Source: Polyangiales bacterium
Lineage (GTDB): Bacteria > Myxococcota_A > Polyangia > Polyangiales > Ga0077539
DNA length: 64,000 nt
NCBI GenBank assembly: GCA_044229975.1
Contig: JBGARZ010000001.1
Location: 896,001-960,000, forward strand
Direction of reading: 5' to 3'
This document shows, one piece after another, positions 29,214-43,710 of the stretch (positions are counted from its first letter, which is position 1; each line of letters starts with the position of its first letter). The position numbers and the translations under genes were made by a program. Below the pieces are notes generated by a model. That model was not told where the DNA came from and made no database searches. It was given only the letters and a program-made list of their open reading frames with translations.

Positions 29214-30761
29214 TCAGTAGTGCACGCCCGACGCGATCTGCCGCGAGCCCGGGAACCCGGTGCCCGCCCACACGCCGTCGAGGAGGTCCATGGCGAGTCC
29301 CCAGCGACGCACGGCCGTCCGACCGCGCGCCCCGTCGAGGTCGTAGCGCACATCGCGCAGCGACGTGATGACCGCGGGCCGGAAGAACATCGCGTGTGCC
29401 AGCTTCACGCGGAAGAAGTCCTCGGGAGAGACCAGCGCGTCACGGTCGAGTCCGCGCACTGGTCCCTCCATGGGCATCGCCTGGCGCAGACGCCACGGCA
29501 TCTTCTCCAACGCGATGGCCGCGAAGCTATGGTGATCGGCCGTGTGGAAGGTCGACACCGTGCAGAGGTACGTCGCCACGGCGCGCGCGAGCACACCGCC
29601 CCGCGCGATGGCGCCGCCGTCGGGGTAGCCCGGCAGCCACGCGGCGATGTGGTCGGCCCAGGCGCGCACGTGCACGTCGTCCGCGGCGACGCCGTCGAGC
29701 GCCTCGGCGACGAAGCCCGTCCACGCCTGCAACCACACCTGACGAAAGCGCCCGTACGAAACATGCGCTCCGGTGAAGAGGTCGCCGAAGCGCCACGCGG
29801 GCCACGCCGGGTTGCGCGCGACGCCCTGTCGACCGGCGACCACCATGCGGTGCATCCCCTCGGTGGTGTACGGGAAGGGGTTGTAGAGCTCGCGCTGCGA
29901 GTTGTGGATGCTCGATCGTCGGTGATGGATCACCGACTCGTGGAGCCCGAGGGTGAAGCGGGTGTGGGGTTCGATGAGCCGCCGTACCGGGTGACGCCGC
30001 GGGAGCACGGAGCGCGTGACGGCGTTGATGACGTCGGCCGGGAAGTGCAGCCGCGGATGCGCCGCCGTGACAAGGCGCACCTGCGCCGATTGCAGCGCGT
30101 ACCAGCGAGCGAGCCGCCACGCGTCGCCCTCGTCGGGCGTGACGATGCGCGCGTGCACCCGGATGGCCGCGACGGACCACGGGTCGCCCTCGCGGCGCAG
30201 CAGCACGACCACGGGCGCGGTGTGGACGCCCGGCAGCAGCTCGTCGAGCGCCGCGACGCTGAAGTCCATCGTGGCGTACACGCCGGGTGAGCGCGCCATC
30301 AGCGGATGGAAGTCCTCGCTCGGGGCGCACTCGTCGGCGAGCGCGACAAACTGCCCGAAGCTCGTGGTGGTGAGCAGCGAGGCGAGCTCGCCGTCGTCGA
30401 CGTCGACGAGTCGTGGCCCGCGCAGGGCCTGCGACGCCGCGGCGGGCACCTCGCTGACCATCTGCCGCAGGTAGCGCGAGACGATGAAGCGCACGTAGTC
30501 GACCCGATCGCCCGCCGGGACATTGAGCACCGGCGCATAGAACTCCGGGTCGATGACCGGCTCCTGCGGCCACGGCCCTCGCACGCCCCGCGGGTGCCGC
30601 GGAGCAGGCGCGTCGATGCGCCCCGCGCCCCAGGGCATCGGGCTGAGGCGCGGCGAGTCGGTCCACGTGGTGGGGGCGCGGAGGAGCGACCCCATGAGGG
30701 AGAGCGCGTCGTCGGAGGCCGGGCTGTCGGGTGCGGTGGTGGTGCGGGCGGGGGCGTTCAT
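29214..30761 (-). CDS. Divergent lipoxygenase-like protein
   Basis: WRLAR, HPRLH-x17-HP...-x8-H (RRHPVRRLIEPHTRFTL), STFHTADH, C-terminal IASGVHY map onto the LOX metal-binding landmarks. Confidence 0.75.
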   Translation of the reverse strand: MNAPARTTTAPDSPASDDALSLMGSLLRAPTTWTDSPRLSPMPWGAGRIDAPAPRHPRGVRGPWPQEPVIDPEFYAPVLNVPAGDRVDYVRFIVSRYLRQMVSEVPAAASQALRGPRLVDVDDGELASLLTTTSFGQFVALADECAPSEDFHPLMARSPGVYATMDFSVAALDELLPGVHTAPVVVLLRREGDPWSVAAIRVHARIVTPDEGDAWRLARWYALQSAQVRLVTAAHPRLHFPADVINAVTRSVLPRRHPVRRLIEPHTRFTLGLHESVIHHRRSSIHNSQRELYNPFPYTTEGMHRMVVAGRQGVARNPAWPAWRFGDLFTGAHVSYGRFRQVWLQAWTGFVAEALDGVAADDVHVRAWADHIAAWLPGYPDGGAIARGGVLARAVATYLCTVSTFHTADHHSFAAIALEKMPWRLRQAMPMEGPVRGLDRDALVSPEDFFRVKLAHAMFFRPAVITSLRDVRYDLDGARGRTAVRRWGLAMDLLDGVWAGTGFPGSRQIASGVHY

Positions 30762-30827
30762 CGGTCCTCCGGGAGCGTCGGTGACTGCGGGGAGTCACTT
30801 CGCACCTGGCGGGCCGCGCGGCCGATG

Positions 30828-31613
30828 TCAGCCGATATCAACCACCGACTGGCGGCCCTTCACGCGCGAGATCACGCGCCCCACGAAGAAGGGCCCCATG
30901 CGGTCCATGAACTCGCCCGTCTGGCGGGTCTTCCGCATCGACTGGATGACGTGCGAGAGCGGGTGCAGCTCCTTGCCGACGAGCCCGATGACGAAGTCGT
31001 TGTCGTTGCTGTCGAGGCCGTGGCAGGCGAGGCGGATGTCGTGCGCCAGGTCCTTCTCCCCGTACGCGCGGCCGATGGTCCCGTGCTCGCGGAGGATGGC
31101 GCCCTGCTCCTTCGGATCGAGCCGACTGAAGGCCCCGGTGCGCTTGAGCGGGTACCACACCGCCCAGTCCCAGCCCTCGTGCATCACGGTGTCGCGCGGC
31201 CGATCGAGCAGCCAGTGGGTGAGGTCGCTCTCGTACCCGGTGCTGTACGTTCGCCCGAACATCGAGAACTCCGGCCGCGACCGCCACGGCGCCACGTCCG
31301 TCGCGCGGTTGCACTCGCGCACGATGTCGTGGACGCGGGTCACGAAGTGCGCCGGGTCTTCGCTGAAGGTGAGCAACCCGAGGCCCTGCGGGTGGTTGGC
31401 GTCGGCGTAGAGCACCGCCGGCACGCCGCCCAGGGTCAGCGCCTCTTCGAGCTGGTGCAACGCCGCGTCGAAGTTGGACGGGTGCTCGAACACTAGGAGC
31501 TGCATGAAAAGTCGCCGGTTGCTCACCTGCGGGACGCCGTCCTTGGGCGCTCCCCGCTCGCTCACGTCCACCGCCGGGAGATCGCCTGGGCCGTGCTTCG
31601 TCGCGTCGCTCAT
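30828..31613 (-). CDS. Chlorite dismutase / coproheme decarboxylase (Cld/ChdC) family heme protein
   Basis: VWYPLKR...EQGAILREHGTIGRAY, GLD..DFVI, MRKT, GPFFVG. Confidence 0.85.
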   Translation of the reverse strand: MSDATKHGPGDLPAVDVSERGAPKDGVPQVSNRRLFMQLLVFEHPSNFDAALHQLEEALTLGGVPAVLYADANHPQGLGLLTFSEDPAHFVTRVHDIVRECNRATDVAPWRSRPEFSMFGRTYSTGYESDLTHWLLDRPRDTVMHEGWDWAVWYPLKRTGAFSRLDPKEQGAILREHGTIGRAYGEKDLAHDIRLACHGLDSNDNDFVIGLVGKELHPLSHVIQSMRKTRQTGEFMDRMGPFFVGRVISRVKGRQSVVDIG

Positions 31614-31661
31614 CGCGCGCTACATCCCACGCCGACGCGCGGGCGGGCAAGCGCACCGATG

Positions 31662-32414
31662 TCAGGAGGCGGACGAACGGGCGGTCGACGCGCGTTCACG
31701 GTCTTCGCTCACGCAGAGCGCGAGGTAGAGGCAGTCGAAGACGAAGATCATCGTGTAGAGGAAGTACGTGAACGAATACGTCGTGGGCTCGACGACGTGC
31801 GGATGCGTGCGGAGGTGGCCGTCGACAAACTGCGCGGGCCACCACGTCGCGAGGAAGAACGACCCGGCGAGCGTCCCGATGAGCTTGAGCCACGCGACGT
31901 GGGTGGAGAGCCCGACGCGCCCCGGCCGCGAGAGGTGGAAGAGCGGGTACGCGATGCTCATGACGAGGTTCATGGACATCGACGAGGTGACGCCCTTGAG
32001 GTCATTGAAGTAGAGCGTGAACGTGTAGAGCGCCCCGGCTGCGGTGCCGAGCGAGAGGGCGAGCAGCGGATAGAACCAGCGCTCCAGCAGCGGCACCACC
32101 TGCGCCGCCTTCCCGTAGCGGAACAGCTGGTAGAGGATGACCACGTCGAAGACGAACCAGAGGCGGTTGCCGTAGTGGAAGAACCAGTGCAGCCGCGCGT
32201 CGGTGAGCTCGAAGGAGTAGATGGCCTCCCACACCACGTTGAGCACGATGCACGGCCACGGGAGCCCGTAGGTCTTCTCCTTGAATCCCCGGTAGATGAT
32301 GATGGCGTAGGCCGCCGTCCAGCCGAGGTACATCACCGCCCCGATGGCGACCTGCAACGGGGAGAACCCCGGCTGCCGCATGAGTTCGTCCCAGATGCGT
32401 TCCATGCGAGGCAT
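31662..32414 (-). CDS. Pyr4/PaxB-like integral-membrane terpene cyclase homolog
   Basis: WTAAYAIIIYRGFKEKTYGLP...LNVVWE (catalytic Glu position), WFVFDV, WLKLIGT, FVFDCLY (second acidic residue); about 7 TM. Confidence 0.75.
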   Translation of the reverse strand: MPRMERIWDELMRQPGFSPLQVAIGAVMYLGWTAAYAIIIYRGFKEKTYGLPWPCIVLNVVWEAIYSFELTDARLHWFFHYGNRLWFVFDVVILYQLFRYGKAAQVVPLLERWFYPLLALSLGTAAGALYTFTLYFNDLKGVTSSMSMNLVMSIAYPLFHLSRPGRVGLSTHVAWLKLIGTLAGSFFLATWWPAQFVDGHLRTHPHVVEPTTYSFTYFLYTMIFVFDCLYLALCVSEDRERASTARSSAS

Positions 32415-35229: not shown

Positions 35230-36087
35230 ATGGCCACCCGGTTGAAGGCTGGTGCTGTTCAGGCGCTGCTGCTCTCCCGTCAGCGGGAGCTGCTCCGAGA
35301 CGTGGCGCGCGAGGTCGGCGCGGAGGTGTTGTTCCTGAAGGCGGCGTGGGCAGACGCCGCGCTGTTTGGAGGGCGCGGCGATCGGGTGGGCAGCGACCTC
35401 GACGTGCTCGTCACCCCGGAGCGCTTCACCGACTACGCCAACGCGCTCGAAGCCCGCGGCTTCACCCGCTACGAGCCGGTCACCCACCGCGCGACCGTCA
35501 CCCTCGGCTCCAAGGAGTGGACCTACTCCCACCCCGGCGCGTGGATGCCCGTCGACCTGCACCGCGAGCTCGCCGAGCCGCCGTGGTTCACGTTCGATGT
35601 CGCAGCGGTGCTCTCGCGCGCCGTGGAGTGGCCCGCGGTGGGCGGCCCCATCCGCTCGCTGGGCCCTGAAGACCAGGTGCTCTACGCGGCGGTTCACTAC
35701 GCCAACCATCTCTACGAGATCGACGATCGACACGCGGGGGACATCGCCCGCCTGCTCACGTCGCACGCCGTGGACTGGTCGCTGATCTACCGCGAGGCCG
35801 ACCGCGGGGGCATGCGACTCATCGCGGAGGTCTTCGCCGAGCACCTGCGCGCACGCGGCCTCGACGTGCCCGCGCCGCCGTGGCCCGCGTCGGCGTTCAC
35901 ACGACTGCGACGCGACTGGGTCGGCCGCTGGGTCGACGTGGGCGCGACCTTCGCGCGGCGGAGTGCTGTGGGGAGGTACACCGGGCTGCTGTTGGAGCGC
36001 CCGGTGTTGAGTGATCGATGGGAGGCGCTGCCCCGTTGGGCGCTCAGGTACGCGGCCTTGCGTGCGCTCGACCGCGTCCTGCGCTGA
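35230..36087 (+). CDS. Nucleotidyltransferase family protein (NTP_transf_5-like)
   Basis: LFLKAAW...RVGSDLDVLV (DxD), VDLHREL, LGPEDQVLY..VH, DIARL, VDW. Confidence 0.85.
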   Translation: MATRLKAGAVQALLLSRQRELLRDVAREVGAEVLFLKAAWADAALFGGRGDRVGSDLDVLVTPERFTDYANALEARGFTRYEPVTHRATVTLGSKEWTYSHPGAWMPVDLHRELAEPPWFTFDVAAVLSRAVEWPAVGGPIRSLGPEDQVLYAAVHYANHLYEIDDRHAGDIARLLTSHAVDWSLIYREADRGGMRLIAEVFAEHLRARGLDVPAPPWPASAFTRLRRDWVGRWVDVGATFARRSAVGRYTGLLLERPVLSDRWEALPRWALRYAALRALDRVLR

Positions 36088-36097
36088 CCCTCCCGGG

Positions 36098-36265
36098 TCA
36101 GGTGTTGGCGAACCCGCCCTCTTCGTCACACGCGCCGGCGTTCTTCCCGCCGGAGCCCGTGTCACACGCGAGGCTATAGGTCTCCAGTGGAAGGTCTTCG
36201 ACGACGCGCGGTGCTTCGTACGGCAGGAGGGCGGAATGGTTGGGCATGGTGTTCTCGGGGGACAT
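36098..36265 (-). CDS. Putative RiPP precursor peptide (55 aa, YxxP leader, two Cys)
   Basis: GAGGAG RBS 7 nt before ATG; MSPENTMPNHSALLPYEAPRVVEDLPLETYSLACDTGSGGKNAGACDEEGGFANT; same strand as and downstream of RRE and rSAM genes. Confidence 0.8.
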   Translation of the reverse strand: MSPENTMPNHSALLPYEAPRVVEDLPLETYSLACDTGSGGKNAGACDEEGGFANT

Positions 36266-36299
36266 GGAGTGACTCCTCATGGAAGGTTGAAGCGGCTGC

Positions 36300-39200
36300 T
36301 CACCGCACGATGAACAGCGCACCAGAAGCGGTCTGGGTGAAGGCCGCGTCGACGGCTCCGTCGCTGTCGATGTCGCCCACCCACGACGTGCTGGAGATCG
36401 TGGCGGCGCTGGTGCCTGTGGGCGACACCACGAAGCGATCGGCCGTGTCGGTGGTCTGCCCCGCCCAGGAAGCGCGGCCGCGGTATGCGTAGAAGCGTGC
36501 CGCGCTGTTGAGCTGATACGCGGCGCTGCCGAGGAGGAGGTCGGCCGAGGGGGCGCCGCTCAGCAGCAGCGAGGGGCGCACCTGCGTCGGGTCGGTGATG
36601 GAGGCGATGGAGCGACCGAAGATGTCGAGCAGGGCGCCAGCGGCCGTGGTGCGAACGCTCCCGCCCGCAGCGAGACCGCCGTCGGTGCCGCCGAAGTACA
36701 GGAACACCTCGCCCGCGCCGCCAGTGGTGCCGATGTTGCCCACGGCGAAGTCGCTACGACCATCGCCGTTGATGTCGCCGACACCCGCGACGACGTTCTG
36801 ACCGTTGGCCGCGGTCGAGCCGGTCACGCTGCCGGGCACCTGACCCGGGCGGGTGAAGGTCGCGTCGGTCGCGGTGAGCGAGAGCGGGGTCGCGAGCGAC
36901 CGGCCCGCGAACACATACGCCGCCGCCGGGGTGCCCGACGCGCCGCCGCCGATGGCGAGATCTTCGAGCAGGTCGTTGCCGACCAGGCGACCCGCGCCGG
37001 CGAGGGAGATGCCGAACACCGTCGCCGTGCCGCTGTTGCGGATGGTGAGGTCGGCACCGTTGGGGGAGAGCGTGGCGGGCCAGGTGCGGCGACCGCGGAA
37101 CAACACCACCGCGCCGCCGCCCGTCGCGATGGGCGCGGCGATGGCGACGTCGTTGAGGTTGTCGACGTCGCCATCGAAGTTGCCGACGCGAGCCAGCGTG
37201 GCGCCGAGGCGGGCCGGGGCGAAGTCGCCCGTGCCACCGCCGATGGTCACGTTGGCCTCGGACGCGAGGTAGGCCATCGCAGTGCCCGTGCGCCACATGG
37301 CGGCCGGGCGGCCGAAGAAGAGGTACACGCTGCCCGCGCGGGTGCCCGACGTCGGGCCCGGCTCGCCGATGGCGATGTCACCGACGCCGTCGCCGTTGAT
37401 GTCGCCGAGCGACGCGACCACGGTGCCGAAGCGACCGTCGGACACCGAGCCGCGGAACTCGGTGAAGTTGGTCTCGGAGAGCCCGGTCGCGGAGCCGAAG
37501 TAGATGCGCGCGAAGCCGCCGGCGCTCGTGCCCTGGGTGGACGAGGCCAGGAGCACGTCCGAGATGCCGTCGCCGTTGAGGTCGAACCCACCGGAGACGG
37601 CGTTGCCGAGCAACGGCGACGCCACGGTGATCTGATCGACCACCACGTCGGGCGTGAGCGGGCCGGCCGAGACCACCGTCGCGCTCGTGTTGCCCACTGC
37701 GTCGAAGGAGCGCATCGCGAAGTAGTAGGCCCGACCGAGCTGGAGGCCGTTGATGTCAGCGGTGTTCGCAGCGCCGGGGGTGCCCGGCGTGGCCGTGATG
37801 ACGGCGAGCGTGGCGCTGGAGAAGTTGGACGCGGTGATGGCGGCCGCGGAGTAGCGAACCTCGTAGCGGCCCACCGGGCGAGTGCCGGTGCCCGAGGGGT
37901 TGGCGTCGGAGCCGTCGTTCCAGGTGAGGCGGACGATGCCCGCGCGGCGCGCCGAGCGCGGGGTCGTCGGGATGGCAGCCACGAAGTCGGTCGGTGCCGT
38001 CGGGATGGCCGTGTCGACCACCACCGTGACCGATGCCGTGCCTACGCCGCGGCCCGTGACTTCGGCGGTGGTCGCCGTGAGGTTGACGGCGTCGCCCTGC
38101 GGGAGCGTGACGCCCGAGAAGGTCACCGTGCCGCCCGCAACGGTGCTCGTCACGGCGGTGCCGCCGTTGATGCGGAGGCTCACCACCGTGCCCGCCGGGG
38201 CGTCGGAGGTGAGCGTCACCGTGGTCGTCGCCGTGGTGAAGAGGGCGCCCGCGGTGGGGGCCGTAAACGCGAGCGTCGGGGGGTTGCCGACGGTGACGGT
38301 GCACATCCCGTTGGTGGTGCTCGCGTTGCCTGCCGGGTCGGTCGCCGCCAGCCGCAACGTGGTCACGCCCGGGAAGAACTGTAGATCGGAGAAGGTGCCC
38401 GTGCCGCCCGTCATGGTCGGCGCCGTCAGCGGAATCTGCCGCGGCATGTCGCCCATGCGTTCGAGCGTGAGGTTGATGGGATAGGCGTCGCTGCTCACGA
38501 TGACGGCGGCGCGCGCAGTGCCATCCGTGCCCGGCGCCACGATGCGGTTGCAGTTGAAGATGTTGAGCGTGGGGGCCGACGAGTCGACGTAGAGCACCGA
38601 GGCCACCGAGGCGCCGCGGTCGCCCGTGGTGTCGGTCACCTGCACGCGAATGGTCGGGCCGGTGGGCGCGGGAGAGGACGGGTCGGTGCGGGTCGGCGAG
38701 GTCTCCGGCAGCGTGACGTTGGCGAAGCGGGCGATGCCGACGAAGCCCATGCCCAGCGTCGCGCAGGGGTCACCCGCCATGGTCGGGGACACCGTCGCCG
38801 TCGCGATGGGGGCCGCCACCATGTCGCGGAGGAGCTCGGCGGTGCCCGACATGCGGTCGGTGCAGGCCACCACCTCGGCCTGGAGGCCCGGCGCCGTGGT
38901 GTCGCGGTCGCGCGCCGCGTTGAGGATGGTGCCAGGGTCGGCCGCGTCGTACGCGACCGGGGCCACGATGCGCACCGACGGCAGCGCCGACTGACAGCGC
39001 ACGTTGGCGATGGTGCTGCGAGCGACGTTGCCCGCCGCGTCCTGCGTCGAGACCTCGACGGTGAAGGGAGCGCCGCCATCGGGACAGGTGACCTGCACGC
39101 ACGCGTCGGTGGTGGCCGAGGCCGGGACGTCGGCGCAGCCCGCCGGGTCGGCCGGGGTCGAGCCCATCACGTTGGCGCACACCCGGCGCCCCGCCGCGTC

Positions 39201-40100
39201 GCTGCGCGCGCACACGTTGAACTGCACGCCCGCGACCGCGGTGTTGACGTCACCCGAGAGGCCGATGGTCGCGTTGGCCATCGGGCTCTGCACGGTGAGC
39301 GTGGGCGCCACCGAGTCGACGGTGAAGCGGCCCTCGGCCGAGCGGCCCACGTTGCCCGCGCGGTTGGTGCACGTCGCGCGCGCCACGAACTCTCCGTCGG
39401 GCGCGAGCGCCACGTTGTTGAAGCGAGCGACCCCGGCCATGACGGCGGCGCGCAAGGGCGTCGCGGTGCCCGTGATGGCGAGCTCGACCTCGCGGCCGTC
39501 CTCCACGTCGGTGCCGACGGTGAAGGTCGTCGCGAAGGGCATGCCCGCGGCGGCGGTGCTGTCGGTCAGGTTGAGCGTCGAGCGCATCGGCGTCGCGATG
39601 GAGCAGCGGGGCACCGCGCAGCTGACCGAGAGCGTGGTGCGACCGCACGGCGCGCTCTCCCCGGCGACGCGCACCTCCAGCGAGGACATCGCGCCGGTGT
39701 CGAACTGCACCGCCTCGAAGCGCACCGTGGGGCCGCTCACGGTGGCGGTGGCCACGCTGCGGGTGTTGACGAAGAGCTCGAGCCGGGTGCCCACGGCCGC
39801 GTTGGTCGCGAGCTGCACCGTGTACGCGAAGCCGTTGCTGCAGTTGTTGTCGGCGTCGTCGGCGACGCCCAGCACCGCCGCGGCGGTCGGGCGCACGAAC
39901 TCGATGGACGGACAGAGCGCGCCCGCATCGTTGCCCGCGTCGTTGCCCGCATCGTTGCCAACGTCGGTCCCGGTGTCGCCGCCCACGTCGCCACCGGCGT
40001 CACCCGCGTCGCCCGCAGGGGCAGGCGGGTCGTCGGAGCAGCCCACGGCTGCGGCGGCGAGAAACGGAAGCAGCAAGCCCAAACGGATGCGATGCGCCAT
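36300..40100 (-). CDS. Large surface lipoprotein: Ig-like/FnIII domains plus C-terminal FG-GAP (integrin-alpha-like) propeller
   Basis: AVGC lipobox; DAG-repeat linker; DxAGN Ig-like motifs; YYFAMRSFDAVGN; DLNGDGISD, GDINGDGVGD, GDINGDGRSD, GDIDSDGAVD Ca-binding loops. Confidence 0.85.
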   Translation of the reverse strand: MAHRIRLGLLLPFLAAAAVGCSDDPPAPAGDAGDAGGDVGGDTGTDVGNDAGNDAGNDAGALCPSIEFVRPTAAAVLGVADDADNNCSNGFAYTVQLATNAAVGTRLELFVNTRSVATATVSGPTVRFEAVQFDTGAMSSLEVRVAGESAPCGRTTLSVSCAVPRCSIATPMRSTLNLTDSTAAAGMPFATTFTVGTDVEDGREVELAITGTATPLRAAVMAGVARFNNVALAPDGEFVARATCTNRAGNVGRSAEGRFTVDSVAPTLTVQSPMANATIGLSGDVNTAVAGVQFNVCARSDAAGRRVCANVMGSTPADPAGCADVPASATTDACVQVTCPDGGAPFTVEVSTQDAAGNVARSTIANVRCQSALPSVRIVAPVAYDAADPGTILNAARDRDTTAPGLQAEVVACTDRMSGTAELLRDMVAAPIATATVSPTMAGDPCATLGMGFVGIARFANVTLPETSPTRTDPSSPAPTGPTIRVQVTDTTGDRGASVASVLYVDSSAPTLNIFNCNRIVAPGTDGTARAAVIVSSDAYPINLTLERMGDMPRQIPLTAPTMTGGTGTFSDLQFFPGVTTLRLAATDPAGNASTTNGMCTVTVGNPPTLAFTAPTAGALFTTATTTVTLTSDAPAGTVVSLRINGGTAVTSTVAGGTVTFSGVTLPQGDAVNLTATTAEVTGRGVGTASVTVVVDTAIPTAPTDFVAAIPTTPRSARRAGIVRLTWNDGSDANPSGTGTRPVGRYEVRYSAAAITASNFSSATLAVITATPGTPGAANTADINGLQLGRAYYFAMRSFDAVGNTSATVVSAGPLTPDVVVDQITVASPLLGNAVSGGFDLNGDGISDVLLASSTQGTSAGGFARIYFGSATGLSETNFTEFRGSVSDGRFGTVVASLGDINGDGVGDIAIGEPGPTSGTRAGSVYLFFGRPAAMWRTGTAMAYLASEANVTIGGGTGDFAPARLGATLARVGNFDGDVDNLNDVAIAAPIATGGGAVVLFRGRRTWPATLSPNGADLTIRNSGTATVFGISLAGAGRLVGNDLLEDLAIGGGASGTPAAAYVFAGRSLATPLSLTATDATFTRPGQVPGSVTGSTAANGQNVVAGVGDINGDGRSDFAVGNIGTTGGAGEVFLYFGGTDGGLAAGGSVRTTAAGALLDIFGRSIASITDPTQVRPSLLLSGAPSADLLLGSAAYQLNSAARFYAYRGRASWAGQTTDTADRFVVSPTGTSAATISSTSWVGDIDSDGAVDAAFTQTASGALFIVR

Positions 40101-40153
40101 GGTGGATCCCCGTCAGAATGGAAGGTTCGAAGCGTGTGAGGTCGCGGGTTCTA

Positions 40154-41446
40154 TCACACCCGGTCGCTCGCCGGTGTGCTGCATGGTTCAGAGGGTGACG
40201 CGTGTAAAGGTGCGCCGTCTCGCCGTCGCCGGAGGGTCACGAGCTCTCCGCCGTCGGCTTTGTTCCCGTGCGCCGGACGGAGCCACTCGAACCTCCGCGC
40301 GAGGGCCTCGTCACCCGGGCTACGCACGTCGCGCTCGGGTCGGATGACCCCGCTCGCCACGATGGAAAACGGGCCCACCGCCGGATCGCGGTCGGGGCCG
40401 CAGTCCGCCGACGGCGGGAGCACATCCAGGCCGCCGGCCGCCGCGGCATACCGAGCGCGAGCGCGGGCGCAGGCCGAGGCGTAGGGCCCCAGGTAGTCGC
40501 CGCCCTCGTGGAGCGCCGTCGCGTGGCAGCGCTGACAGGCCGGAAGCAGGTCGCAGTCCCGACAGCCGTGAATCCGCGACCAGGTCAAGCCCTCGAACAG
40601 CGCCCGCTCGGGCGCCGCATCGAGCGCCGCGGAGAGGGACTCGCGCGTGAGGTCGGCGAGGATGGATGGGGTATCTGTGCACGCTTGCAGCCGCCCGTCG
40701 GGCAGCACGACGAGGCCCGAGCGGCCGACCCCGCACGGATACTTCGCGAGCTTCTCGGCGCGCGCCGCTTCGGCATCGGCGGGCGGCGACCAGGGTTGGA
40801 GCAAGCCCTCGCGCAGCAGGTCTTCCGGGGTGACCCGAACGGCCCATGGGTCGTCCGCGCCGTCTTCGCGCATCGTGAGGTCGGTCGAGGGGTGATGCTC
40901 GCAGCCGAGCCGCAGGGCGAGGGCCTCGACGGAGCGTGTCCCCTTGAGCGAGAGCGTGGTGGCGGGCGTCTTGAGCACCACCCGCACACCGCGCTCGCGG
41001 AGGGCCGAGATGGCGCCCGCCGTGCGAACGAAGGAGCCCGGAACGCGGGTGACGGCGTCGTGCTCGGCCGCCTCTCCCGAGTAGAGGCTGATGTGGACTT
41101 CGAGCAGGCCGATGAGCGCCAGCGCGTCGGCGTAGGCCGCGTCGATGAGGAACCCATTGGTGAAGAGCCGCACCGCGAATCCACGGCCGCGCGCGTGGCG
41201 CAGGATGTCGAGCAGGTCGGGCCGCAGCGTCGCCTCGCCGCCGCTCACGTTGAGCGTGAACACCCCTGCGTCAGCGATGCCGTCGATGACTCCGCGGAGC
41301 TCGTCGAGGGACAGCTCGCCCTTCTCGCCCTGCACCTGGTAGCAGTGCTGGCAGGCGTGGTTGCAGCGGTCGGCCACCTGGAGGTGAACGCCCATGGGCC
41401 GCCCCTGCCGCGTGGCGAGCGAGCGCAGGAGGTCGGAGCCCTTCAC
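40154..41446 (-). CDS. Radical SAM/SPASM domain peptide maturase
   Basis: CNHACQHC (CxxxCxxC), SGGE, FTNG, HDAVTRVPGSF; SPASM CGVG...DGRLQAC and CxxCx5CxxCx18C. Confidence 0.93.
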   Translation of the reverse strand: MKGSDLLRSLATRQGRPMGVHLQVADRCNHACQHCYQVQGEKGELSLDELRGVIDGIADAGVFTLNVSGGEATLRPDLLDILRHARGRGFAVRLFTNGFLIDAAYADALALIGLLEVHISLYSGEAAEHDAVTRVPGSFVRTAGAISALRERGVRVVLKTPATTLSLKGTRSVEALALRLGCEHHPSTDLTMREDGADDPWAVRVTPEDLLREGLLQPWSPPADAEAARAEKLAKYPCGVGRSGLVVLPDGRLQACTDTPSILADLTRESLSAALDAAPERALFEGLTWSRIHGCRDCDLLPACQRCHATALHEGGDYLGPYASACARARARYAAAAGGLDVLPPSADCGPDRDPAVGPFSIVASGVIRPERDVRSPGDEALARRFEWLRPAHGNKADGGELVTLRRRRDGAPLHASPSEPCSTPASDRV

Positions 41447-41724
41447 GGGGCCTCCACCGCGGGGCGCAGGAGGCCGCGGGCCACGAGGTCGTCGAGGAAG
41501 GCCACCACGTCGGCGTTGGCGGTGGCCTCGTCGACCGCGAAGCGCTCGCGCACGGCGGCCACGAGCTGGTCGATGGTGGCGCCGTCGCAGCGCTCCCAGA
41601 GGAAGCTCCCGACGGCGTTGAAGAGGCGCACCCGGCTGGTGTCGAGGGAGATCACCGCCACCTGGTCGTCGTAGCGTCGCCAGACCGCATCGCGTGCGTG
41701 GTGGACGGTTCGTTGGGCGTTCAT
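41443..41724 (-). CDS. PqqD-family RiPP recognition element (RRE)
   Basis: 93 aa; LFNAVGSFLWERCDG.TIDQLV...RFAVD...DVVAFLDDLVARGLL. Confidence 0.93.
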   Translation of the reverse strand: MNAQRTVHHARDAVWRRYDDQVAVISLDTSRVRLFNAVGSFLWERCDGATIDQLVAAVRERFAVDEATANADVVAFLDDLVARGLLRPAVEAP

Positions 41725-42482
41725 GGCGGTGAGGTCGTCGGGTGGAGGGCGGTGTCGAGGGCCGCAAGATAGCCCGGCCCCCAGGGCAAGCCTAGCGTCA
41801 AAGCCCGCACGCGGCCGCCCAACGAGAGGGCGACGCCCGCCCGGACTCGTGCGTGGGGGTCCTCTCCCCGGGGGCGCGTCACATGAGACATCAGGCGCAT
41901 CGTTGCCGTAGAGCCCGGCATCCATTCAACCGTGGCCAGGGAATGGCGATGGACGAAGGCCAGGGCCACGAGCGGCGAGCGATCGGGCGCCTCCAGCTCG
42001 GGCGCGGCCTCGCGGTTGAACGGCATCGCGCGCACCCTCATCGACGAAGGCCCGTCGCCCCCTTCGACGAGCACCGAGTTGGACGCGAAGGCCCGCTCGC
42101 CCGCCGCGCGCACGGCGGTGGTCTTGCCCACCCCGGGTGCGGCGATCAGCAGCGCGACCCCGCCCTCGACCCGCACCGCCCCGGCGTGCAGGAGGAAGCA
42201 CCCGTGGAGGGGCGCGTCGCGCGCGACCAGCTCGCACACCGCGGCCAGCCACGGTGCGTGCCGGGCGGGGTCATCGATGATGGTGAGCTGATCGTGGTCA
42301 GGGTGCGCGGTGAGCGCGAAGCCGACCTCGGCATCGGTGGGGAGCGTGGGCGCCAACGAGACCGTCACGCGGCGCGCATCGACCGGTGGGTCGCAGAGCC
42401 ACGGTCGCAGAAGCGGATGGGGCGGCGGCCCTTCGAGGGCGAGCGCAACGGGACCGAAGCGCAAGCCGTAGGCAGCGCTCAC
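41721..42482 (-). CDS. HPr-kinase-related P-loop protein B (lacks the DD motif)
   Basis: LLHAGAV...LLIAAPGVGKTT; FASNS where family members carry LSDD. Confidence 0.75.
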   Translation of the reverse strand: MSAAYGLRFGPVALALEGPPPHPLLRPWLCDPPVDARRVTVSLAPTLPTDAEVGFALTAHPDHDQLTIIDDPARHAPWLAAVCELVARDAPLHGCFLLHAGAVRVEGGVALLIAAPGVGKTTAVRAAGERAFASNSVLVEGGDGPSSMRVRAMPFNREAAPELEAPDRSPLVALAFVHRHSLATVEWMPGSTATMRLMSHVTRPRGEDPHARVRAGVALSLGGRVRALTLGLPWGPGYLAALDTALHPTTSPP

Positions 42483-43318
42483 GCGAGCCAGCGGTCGAGC
42501 AGCGGCAGCACCGGCGCCTCGCGCGGCAGGGCCAGCGTCACACACGGAACGGCGCCGACGAGGTGATGCGCGTGGTCGAGCAGCGACGCGGCCGCGGGGT
42601 CGCCCTGCGCGAACCACACCATCGACTGGAGCGCGTCGGCGAAGGCGGCCGACGGGGAGCACGCGCCGACCGCGAGCGTGTCGGCCTTGCGGAGAAACAC
42701 CAGCGCCCGCAGACGCGCCCGACGCGGGACCGTGGGTCGTCGCCACTCGCCGACGAAGGGCAGCGAGAGGGCGTCCCACCCATCGGCCGTGCGACGGATG
42801 GCGACGAGGTCGTCGGACAGAACGTGGGCCTCGGGGAGCTTGCGCGCGGTGGTGGTCTTGCCGCCGCCCGAGCGGGCGATGAAGAGCACCGCCCCGCGCT
42901 CGTCGGCGTAGCCGCAGGCGTGGACCATCGCTCCCTGGCGGGACGGGAGCTCGGTCGCAAGCTGGAGGCGCAGGGGCGTGTCGATGGGCGTGACGTCGTC
43001 CATGGGGACGTCGGTGTGGACGGTCGGACGCACGAGCGCTGTCGCGCGATGTCGACCCAGATGGACACGCGTCTCGCCGTCGGGTCGGAGGAAGCGCAGC
43101 GCGCCGTCGGGCTCGCGCCGCACGTCGACCCCCGGGAAGCGGTTGAGCACCGGCTCCGGCAGCGACCACGCGGGGTCGACGGTGATGTCGAGGTGCAGGT
43201 CGGGCGCCGCGCCGTCGTCGAGCGCGACGTAGCGACCGAAGCGCAGGTCGGCGTGACCCTCGTGGATGGGCCCGGTGGTGGCGACGGCGACGCGCAGCCC
43301 GGCGATGTCGAGGATCAC
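42479..43318 (-). CDS. HPr-kinase-related P-loop protein A
   Basis: MVHACG...LFIARSGGGKTT, VLSDDLVAI, LPFVGE. Confidence 0.82.
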   Translation of the reverse strand: MILDIAGLRVAVATTGPIHEGHADLRFGRYVALDDGAAPDLHLDITVDPAWSLPEPVLNRFPGVDVRREPDGALRFLRPDGETRVHLGRHRATALVRPTVHTDVPMDDVTPIDTPLRLQLATELPSRQGAMVHACGYADERGAVLFIARSGGGKTTTARKLPEAHVLSDDLVAIRRTADGWDALSLPFVGEWRRPTVPRRARLRALVFLRKADTLAVGACSPSAAFADALQSMVWFAQGDPAAASLLDHAHHLVGAVPCVTLALPREAPVLPLLDRWLA

Positions 43319-43710
43319 GCGAACACCCCACGCAGCGCAGCGAGCGCGACACGACCGAGGGCCCGCAGCTCACGACGACGCGGCCACCGAAGCGAGAGCG
43401 GTCGTTGCTCGACCACGGCCGCGCGACCGAGCACGTCGCCCCAGGACACGGCACCGTCATCGCGCGACAGGGCATCACCGCGGCAGGTCGGCCCCGCGGG
43501 CCCCAGGGAGGCGACCCGATGCACCACGAGGGCGCCTCCGCGGGAGTAGGCGATGACCTCGCCGACGCGGACGGCGCGCGGGTCGCACGGGGTCACCAGC
43601 ACGCTCGCCCCGTCGCGGACGGTCGGCCACATGCTCGCGCCGCGAACGACCCAACGGGTGGGGCGGCCTTCGCGGAGAGAGTCGACGATCACGCGTTCGG
43701 CGAGGCCCAT
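43315..43710 (-). CDS. S24/S26-family serine peptidase
   Basis: VRGASMWPTVRDG, GEVIAY, LVVHRV, RGDA...D, VLGR; no TM anchor apparent. Confidence 0.85.
   Translation of the reverse strand: MGLAERVIVDSLREGRPTRWVVRGASMWPTVRDGASVLVTPCDPRAVRVGEVIAYSRGGALVVHRVASLGPAGPTCRGDALSRDDGAVSWGDVLGRAAVVEQRPLSLRWPRRRELRALGRVALAALRGVFA

Follow-up and report, generated by a model that had tools for sequence, protein, structure and literature searches.

The described systems closest to the locus reported here are phosphorylated lasso peptides, thioether-forming radical S-adenosylmethionine (SAM) enzymes and a database-defined cassette. According to PMC6993621 and PMC9266682, the HprK-like kinases of lasso peptide clusters phosphorylate the C-terminal Ser and require an Asp-Asp pair, and PsmN, similarly annotated to the nucleotidyltransferase (NTase) described below, is needed for the addition of hexose to the phosphate. 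In the thioether-forming enzymes CteB and SkfB auxiliary cluster I (Aux I) has an open site; the clusters of the anaerobic sulfatase maturase (anSME) are fully ligated (PMC6231123). The SynChlorMet cassette is defined by the NCBIfam models TIGR04248 (ScmD), TIGR04249 (ScmC), TIGR04250 (ScmE) and TIGR04251 (ScmF). Here we analyse an eight-gene locus in a 64,000-nucleotide stretch (the window) of a Polyangiales bacterium genome (assembly GCA_044229975.1, contig JBGARZ010000001.1, positions 896,001 to 960,000). It encodes an S26-family peptidase, two HprK-like proteins, a stand-alone PqqD-type recognition element (RRE), a radical SAM/SPASM maturase (rSAM), a giant FG-GAP lipoprotein, a small peptide and an NTase, and it is one intact copy of a conserved, uncharacterised myxobacterial cassette for the maturation of a ribosomally synthesised and post-translationally modified peptide (RiPP). 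A published description of the cassette was not found in the literature accessible to the search; its rSAMs may be included in a RiPP-rSAM compendium of about 15,000 enzymes (PMC10288494).

A preliminary description, made from the letters of the window alone, had proposed a chain of five minus-strand genes followed by the lipoprotein and peptide genes, with an NTase gene converging on the latter. This arrangement holds for all eight open reading frames (ORFs) and their coordinates (Table 1). The five chained genes share four 4-nt overlaps (GTGA at 43315-43318, 42479-42482 and 41443-41446, ATGA at 41721-41724), the lipoprotein gene and then the peptide gene lie downstream of the rSAM gene on the same strand, and the stop codons of the peptide and NTP_transf_5 genes are 10 nt apart. 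Codon bias was gene-like in 8/8 ORFs (GC content 0.80-0.94 at third versus 0.46-0.61 at second codon positions). Pfam matches included Radical_SAM (E 5e-18) and a weak SPASM match under the cut-off (1e-3) for the rSAM, and FG-GAP (2e-11) for the lipoprotein. The source genome (10 Mb, 93% complete) contains each cassette gene in single copy, except for paralogues of the rSAM and FG-GAP genes.

The rSAM profile (E 1e-60) matched 44 of the 401 Myxococcota genomes sampled and 251 metagenome stretches, 80 of which were kept. The 157 loci gathered comprised 126 that were non-redundant at 97%; the peptide was visible in 58 of these, most of the others being short contigs. At the 41 loci with at least 7 kb on both sides a kinase gene was present in 39, PqqD in 38, the peptide in 37, S26 in 33 and NTase in 14. 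Homologous loci thus retain the small peptide, whose absence from them had been named beforehand as an outcome that would refute the proposal. A chance arrangement can be dismissed because the gene order and the peptide are found again at dozens of independent loci. The precursor profile, which was built partly from the same family and order genomes in which it was then counted, had matches in 66 of the order's 151 genomes and in 22 of the 23 other genomes of the family, almost always one per genome. Named relatives are Myxococcota, Chondromyces apiculatus among them. Among the sequencing runs listed, four DNA runs had small shares and no RNA run was found. The product bears more resemblance to a cell-surface or signalling molecule passed on vertically than to an antibiotic of sporadic occurrence.

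The proposal that the small ORF encodes the precursor has gained weight from this conservation and from a set of 115 unique peptides; the 55-aa peptide is almost certainly the substrate of the cassette. In the window copy Tyr16 opens the YxxP motif, the predicted cut is at Ser-Leu-Ala|Cys34, and the 22-aa core contains Cys34, Cys46 and the terminal Thr55. Sequence rules were derived from the 115 peptides, with positions read at fixed offsets from the leader Tyr. The leader consensus is YxxP-x-[VIF]...[FL]E-x-x-small-Leu-small, Pro at Tyr+3 being present in 115/115. Cys occupies Tyr+18 in 93 peptides, 17 of the remaining 22 read [LF]-G-Ser/Thr at the junction, and all 115 have a further Cys downstream. 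Among the 93 that start with Cys, position -3 is Ala or Ser in 87, position -2 Leu in 74 (Thr in 6) and position -1 Ala, Ser, Gly or Thr in 80; the second Cys follows 6-23 residues on, after a hypervariable loop. Of these 93, 84 end in Ser or Thr (Ser 60, Thr 24), compared with a share of 11% within the core. Five Chondromyces-type cores terminate in the invariant Cys (5/115), and in these its partner must therefore be upstream. Trp was absent from all 115 cores, and Asp or Glu occurred at core positions 7-9 in only 22; the cores therefore suit neither cyclophane nor lasso chemistry.

Genes, synteny, sequence rules and catalytic motifs are directly established, and every chemical step we infer from them. 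The best overall explanation, to which we assign a probability of about 0.5, is that the cassette would mature a thioether-closed, trimmed, C-terminally phosphorylated and possibly sugar-capped peptide. The PqqD/RRE protein would grip the YxxP leader, and the rSAM would close one Cys-dependent, sulfur-bridged ring from the invariant downstream Cys onto the first core residue. Kinase A would then phosphorylate the last residue (the terminal Thr), the NTase would cap the C-terminal phosphate, and the S26 peptidase would cut off the leader to free the 22-residue core. The product would act at the cell surface, perhaps together with the lipoprotein. By analogy, we propose that the cassette may work like a hybrid of a lasso tailoring module and a thioether rSAM.

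Table 1. Genes of the peptide-maturation cassette, with positions in the window
Gene product	Position	Strand	Distinguishing features
S26-family (SEC11-like) peptidase, minimal, 131 aa	43315..43710	-	TIGR02228, catalytic residues
HprK/PEPCK-like kinase A, 279 aa	42479..43318	-	intact His133-Lys154-Asp169-Asp170
HprK-like protein B (HprB), 253 aa	41721..42482	-	P-loop intact; Ser-Asn replaces Asp-Asp
Stand-alone PqqD/RRE, 93 aa	41443..41724	-	PF05402 E 2.3e-18
Radical SAM/SPASM maturase, 430 aa	40154..41446	-	CxxxCxxC at 28-35, seven auxiliary Cys
FG-GAP lipoprotein, 1266 aa	36300..40100	-	lipobox Cys21, C-terminal beta-propeller
Precursor peptide, 55 aa	36098..36265	-	YxxP leader; GAGGAG 8 nt before ATG
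NTP_transf_5 nucleotidyltransferase, 285 aa	35230..36087	+	PF14907 E 4e-24

The maturase carries a clade-specific C-terminal extension (structure model with predicted local distance difference test score, pLDDT, 92.5). Its auxiliary Cys residues are 238, 256, 295, 298, 304, 307 and 326, with CX2CX5CX2C spacing and no conserved eighth. Cys238, Cys256 and Cys307, which from SPASM architecture we take to be the Aux I ligands, are invariant in 92 rSAM sequences, and the residue after Cys256 is variable. Since there are seven Cys, since these three are invariant and since a sister lineage keeps three, the sequences suggest that Aux I has three Cys ligands and an open site, like that of CteB and SkfB. 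By sequence, the closest PDB match was likewise SkfB (4e-23). Quick trees placed the cassette rSAMs on one branch (46 rows, Shimodaira-Hasegawa-like approximate likelihood ratio test, SH-aLRT, 96; 32 rows, SH-aLRT 97), separate from the PqqE, MftC, ScmE and Ahb/NirJ-like references. Clustering with PqqE, MftC or Ahb enzymes, named beforehand as an outcome that would speak against a new system, was therefore not seen. That the rSAM forms a Cys-dependent ring is the reading we favour, with some reserve; the first core residue as the ring partner is a more tentative proposal.

Small-x-small before the cut site is the signal peptidase rule, and the small residues at -3 and -1 of the precursors fit the S26 preference. 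The S26 protein matched TIGR02228 (E 1.6e-9, under the cut-off), its best PDB match was SEC11C (E 4e-6), and it has no obvious N-terminal membrane anchor. The Ser-His-Asp residues are present: position 26 is Ser in 48 of 56 sequences and Cys in 7, His64 is found in 56/56 and Asp79 in 53/56. This peptidase probably takes off the leader, with small-Leu-small|Cys as the cut site. A 2023 review of RiPP proteases makes no mention of S26, S24 or signal peptidase in its main text.

Kinase A retains His-Lys-Asp-Asp, the motif of the lasso kinases; both kinases gave only weak HprK-rel/ScmC matches. With Ser or Thr at the end of most precursors, the phosphorylated product suggested in the preliminary description is plausible, and by analogy to the lasso enzymes there is a good chance that kinase A acts as a C-terminal Ser/Thr kinase. 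The two HPr-kinase-like genes, described earlier as twins, are both real and not equivalent. At the alignment column of Asp170, Asn occurs in 17 of 112 sequences, all of B-type, and Asp or Glu in the other 95; two kinases are present at 17 of 84 loci, and the B-type is limited to one sub-lineage. Only one kinase is likely to be active because HprB has Asn for the catalytic Asp (17/17), and by its sequence HprB is likely a pseudo-kinase, a catalytically dead helper. The NTase, also named as part of the toolkit, is present here and retains Lys37, Asp56 and Asp58 (Asp-x-Asp) as in 21/21 sequences; it is single-copy in the source genome. A constant member of the toolkit it is not (see above), and an NTase was encoded elsewhere in 5/5 genomes checked, in four over the cut-off. 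A PsmN-like role, adding a nucleoside monophosphate or hexose cap to the phosphate, has by analogy about even chances.

Compared with the paeninodin (PadeK) and pseudomycoidin (PsmK, PsmN) systems, the cassette has in common the YxxP leader, the stand-alone RRE, the His-Lys-Asp-Asp kinase, the NTase and a precursor with C-terminal Ser or Thr. The combination typical of PadeK/PsmK tailoring, such a kinase with a Ser-ending precursor, is found in the family; the window copy ends in Thr. In contrast to these lasso systems the cassette has no cyclase, B2 protease or ATP-binding cassette exporter, and contains an rSAM and an S26 peptidase instead. Its precursors have Leu rather than Thr at -2 (74/93 versus 6/93) and no fixed Asp/Glu at core positions 7-9. 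A B2-type transglutaminase (PF13471) was not found in the 93%-complete source genome, and the Asn-synthase genes, six of them full-length, sit on other contigs than the cassette. The earlier view of a RiPP-type cassette without lasso cyclase or B2 is borne out by this.

With SynChlorMet the cassette shares PqqD, an rSAM/SPASM enzyme and a P-loop, ScmC-like protein, and the sole true ScmE locus compared (L143) likewise encodes, next to its rSAM, a Cys peptide with a YxxP leader. The cassette has one rSAM, whereas SynChlorMet has two, and scores fell far below the cut-offs (ScmE 54/400, ScmF 50/400, ScmD 38/100, ScmC 13/125 bits). The precursors differ as well: the core of the cassette has 22 aa and two Cys, in contrast to the 138-aa multi-Cys precursor of L143; hhalign related the two with a probability of 1.5%, in the leader only, and Scm models matched 0/45 cassette peptides. 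GeoRSP (TIGR04302/04303) and HPr-rel-A (TIGR04352/04353) supplied the best NCBIfam matches for the rSAM, PqqD and kinase B; the scores (96.5/400, 41/100, 18/200 and 18.5/35 bits) set the cassette apart from them at the level of model scores. TIGR04303 was passed by 0/301 genomes in the phylum. None of the cassette proteins passed an NCBIfam cut-off, the top models being GeoRSP, SynChlorMet and HPr-rel, and the names of matching clusters were generic. The layout resembles these cassettes, and because it fails their cut-offs the cassette belongs to none of them. The toolkit is also less novel than the preliminary description implied, as cassettes of HprK-like, PqqD and rSAM/SPASM proteins are already named in NCBIfam. 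With sactipeptides and ranthipeptides (SkfB, CteB, AlbA, GggB, StsB) the cassette shares a Cys-containing core and a SPASM/twitch rSAM with a predicted open Aux I; it differs in that its invariant Cys would sit downstream of a fixed partner position, that the single predicted ring is free in length, and that kinase, NTase and S26 are added.

The lipoprotein consists of a lipobox (Cys21), a stalk resembling immunoglobulin and fibronectin type III domains, and a C-terminal FG-GAP beta-propeller. The last 470 aa were modelled as a propeller (pLDDT 88.8), and in a fold search the top matches were all integrin alpha heads, with template modelling (TM) scores of about 0.6-0.66; an ESM Atlas search returned generic FG-GAP clusters only, under 0.9. 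The likeness to the integrin alpha-subunit lies in this predicted fold and the FG-GAP repeats. Unlike integrin alpha, to which identity is 14-16%, the lipoprotein is N-terminally lipid-anchored with the propeller at its C-terminus, and no beta subunit was seen. It had been listed as following the chained genes, and the neighbourhoods show it to be more than a bystander: 47 of the 58 loci with a peptide have an FG-GAP giant (ORFs of 846-2756 aa) immediately upstream of it, the adjacency is preserved in a clade with different gene order, and only 1 of the 38 FG-GAP ORFs of the source genome is trailed by such a peptide. It is a lineage-wide co-inherited partner, not a core enzyme, and not needed to make the peptide. 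An obligatory role lost support in view of eight informative loci and a ten-locus sister lineage without it, and two apparent natural peptide-lipoprotein fusions (ORFs of 1325 and 1013 aa) were rejected as Arg-rich shadow frames. The odds are slightly less than even that the lipoprotein serves as a functional partner, either as a receptor or as a platform for display on the cell surface. At three loci without the lipoprotein the neighbour is a different exported protein: a Kelch propeller (L006), a PQQ-like propeller (L132) and a C25 peptidase (L148). The last (L148, 4833-7967), gingipain/PorU-like and with a C-terminal hydrophobic tail, replaces the FG-GAP lipoprotein after the cassette.

Several observations weigh against a thioether-closed, phosphorylated peptide that acts with the lipoprotein. 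The 47/58 count leans towards rSAMs resembling the window copy, and the 11 loci without lipoprotein comprise three contig edges and eight real exceptions. Because several of the latter nest among lipoprotein-bearing rows of the rSAM tree, loss of the lipoprotein is suggested there. Of 20 further regions chosen from 67 precursor-profile matches, 8 had a propeller, 10 had none and 2 belonged to a Cys-free family; those 10 carry either kinase-PqqD-rSAM-peptide remnants or the full cassette, S26 being present in most and a converging NTase in five. A matching propeller (E 1e-20) was absent in four of five genomes of the lipoprotein-free lineage. The fold search with the rSAM did not discriminate, as BlsE, PqqE, SkfB, SuiB, CteB and anSME all gave TM 0.47-0.55. 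Ring spacing is variable (6 to 23 residues), the peptides were collected with profiles that reward Cys, and the Ser/Thr-start peptides mostly have no terminal Ser or Thr, yet their kinases keep Asp-Asp. To these may be added the NTase at only 14 of 41 loci and the failure to find a recurring exporter or other additional gene among 883 ORFs of 68 loci. In the published thioether peptides considered (streptosactin, StsA) the donor Cys is upstream of the acceptor, the reverse of the proposed geometry. On chemical grounds, the link could be labile if an N-terminal Cys, Ser or Thr bore the thioether at its alpha or beta carbon.

Among the alternatives, the rSAM might alter the first core residue only, by oxidation or elimination, and the downstream Cys would then add unaided to give a lanthionine-like ring, or stay free beside an N-terminal aldehyde or keto group. 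Such chemistry has a model in anSME, which oxidises Cys and Ser and is among the structural neighbours of the rSAM, and it would suit a position +1 that holds only beta-heteroatom residues and is fixed to the leader, with loop lengths from 6 to 23. We nevertheless consider it unlikely, as anSME clusters are fully ligated (PMC6231123) as opposed to the seven Cys here, and the residue after Cys256 is not conserved. An ordinary sactipeptide or ranthipeptide, with thioethers from Cys34 (and Cys46) to acceptors further along the core, Gly for example, a secreted product and the lipoprotein a mere neighbour, seems to us equally unlikely. In the published thioether peptides considered, an upstream donor is the rule, and this reading also agrees with Gly-rich cores and with the 8 + 10 loci that lack the lipoprotein. 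However, no conserved acceptor residue downstream of Cys was found among the 115 cores and an exporter is absent from the loci; about 17 cores have Ser or Thr at +1, in five cores the invariant Cys is the last residue, and single-copy retention (22/23 in the family) and a lipoprotein adjacency fixed through rearrangements also speak against it. The lipoprotein itself could be the substrate or attachment site, if a freed peptide with N-terminal Cys, Ser or Thr were ligated to it or if the rSAM cross-linked it. In favour of this, 45 of 48 partners end 22-35 residues past the last FG-GAP motif, compared with 4 of 38 genome FG-GAP ORFs, rSAM/SPASM thioethers are reported on a large protein (PMC13692751), and other exported proteins adjoin the three lipoprotein-free loci mentioned above. 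A leader-like motif was not found in the giants, where the profile matched only small or shadow ORFs, the two fusions proved to be shadow frames, the cassette persists without the lipoprotein, and the shared C-terminus may be simple homology, so that this possibility is improbable. Finally, generic profile matches to cofactor families and the six full-length Asn-synthase genes on other contigs could point to an enzyme of a cofactor pathway (PqqE, MftC, Ahb/NirJ), or to a lasso cluster whose cyclase acts in trans. This is largely refuted and hardly deserves credence: the models scored 70-93 bits versus cut-offs of 265-650, the rSAM branch is separate, B2 was not found, and the precursors depart from the lasso pattern at -2 and at core positions 7-9 (see above).

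The analysis proposes a substrate and sequence rules for an unnamed rSAM family, and it brings the HprK/PqqD/rSAM cassettes, which existed as database entries only, within reach of direct tests that use a 55-aa peptide and five small enzymes. If true, the pairing of a RiPP with an integrin-like surface protein would link peptide natural-product chemistry to bacterial cell-surface recognition. The fullest version, a new RiPP class with a radical, free-length lanthionine-like ring, an S26-family leader peptidase and a phospho-capped product that serves as the dedicated, strain-variable ligand or attached tag of an integrin-like lipoprotein in adhesion or kin recognition, is a long shot, somewhat less likely than either of the two alternative ring chemistries.

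Related arrangements were met on the way. A sister cassette without lipoprotein (L180-L187, L189, L190) has an rSAM that keeps only three auxiliary Cys and is twitch-like, an S26 whose nucleophile is Cys in the four copies examined, and peptides with Cys at Tyr+18, a second Cys and a terminal Ser in 10/10. In the cultured Chondromyces apiculatus DSM 436 (L007, 8708-13011) the kinase is fused to PqqD, S26 and NTase are in line, and there is no FG-GAP partner; the precursor has Thr at +1 and Cys as its last residue. A second, Cys-free YxxP precursor family with a Gly/Met/Val-rich core (L191, 7705-15747; L192, 4374-12053), in relatives of the same family, is accompanied by a divergent rSAM, kinase, PqqD and NTase. 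The 138-aa Cys/Gly-rich precursor of L143 (2898-3314) lies between ScmE and an ScmF-like gene and is recognised by no NCBIfam model. Four loci (L109, 10656-11582; L070; L076; L125) contain a gene of about 300 aa without Pfam match near the S26 and NTase genes.

One 150 kb contig of the source genome (G000:C30) is densely packed with at least 14 radical SAM matches. A plasmid search returned only rSAM clusters unrelated to the cassette; among these, Indioceanicola and Microbulbifer plasmids share an NTF2-like gene, rSAM, PqqD and two more rSAMs (L141, 11017-15841; L142, 11379-15730). Elsewhere in the window, positions 29214-32414 encode a Pyr4-like membrane terpene cyclase (31662-32414, PF25129), a chlorite-dismutase-family protein and a 515-aa ORF without Pfam match, whose His pattern tentatively suggests a lipoxygenase.

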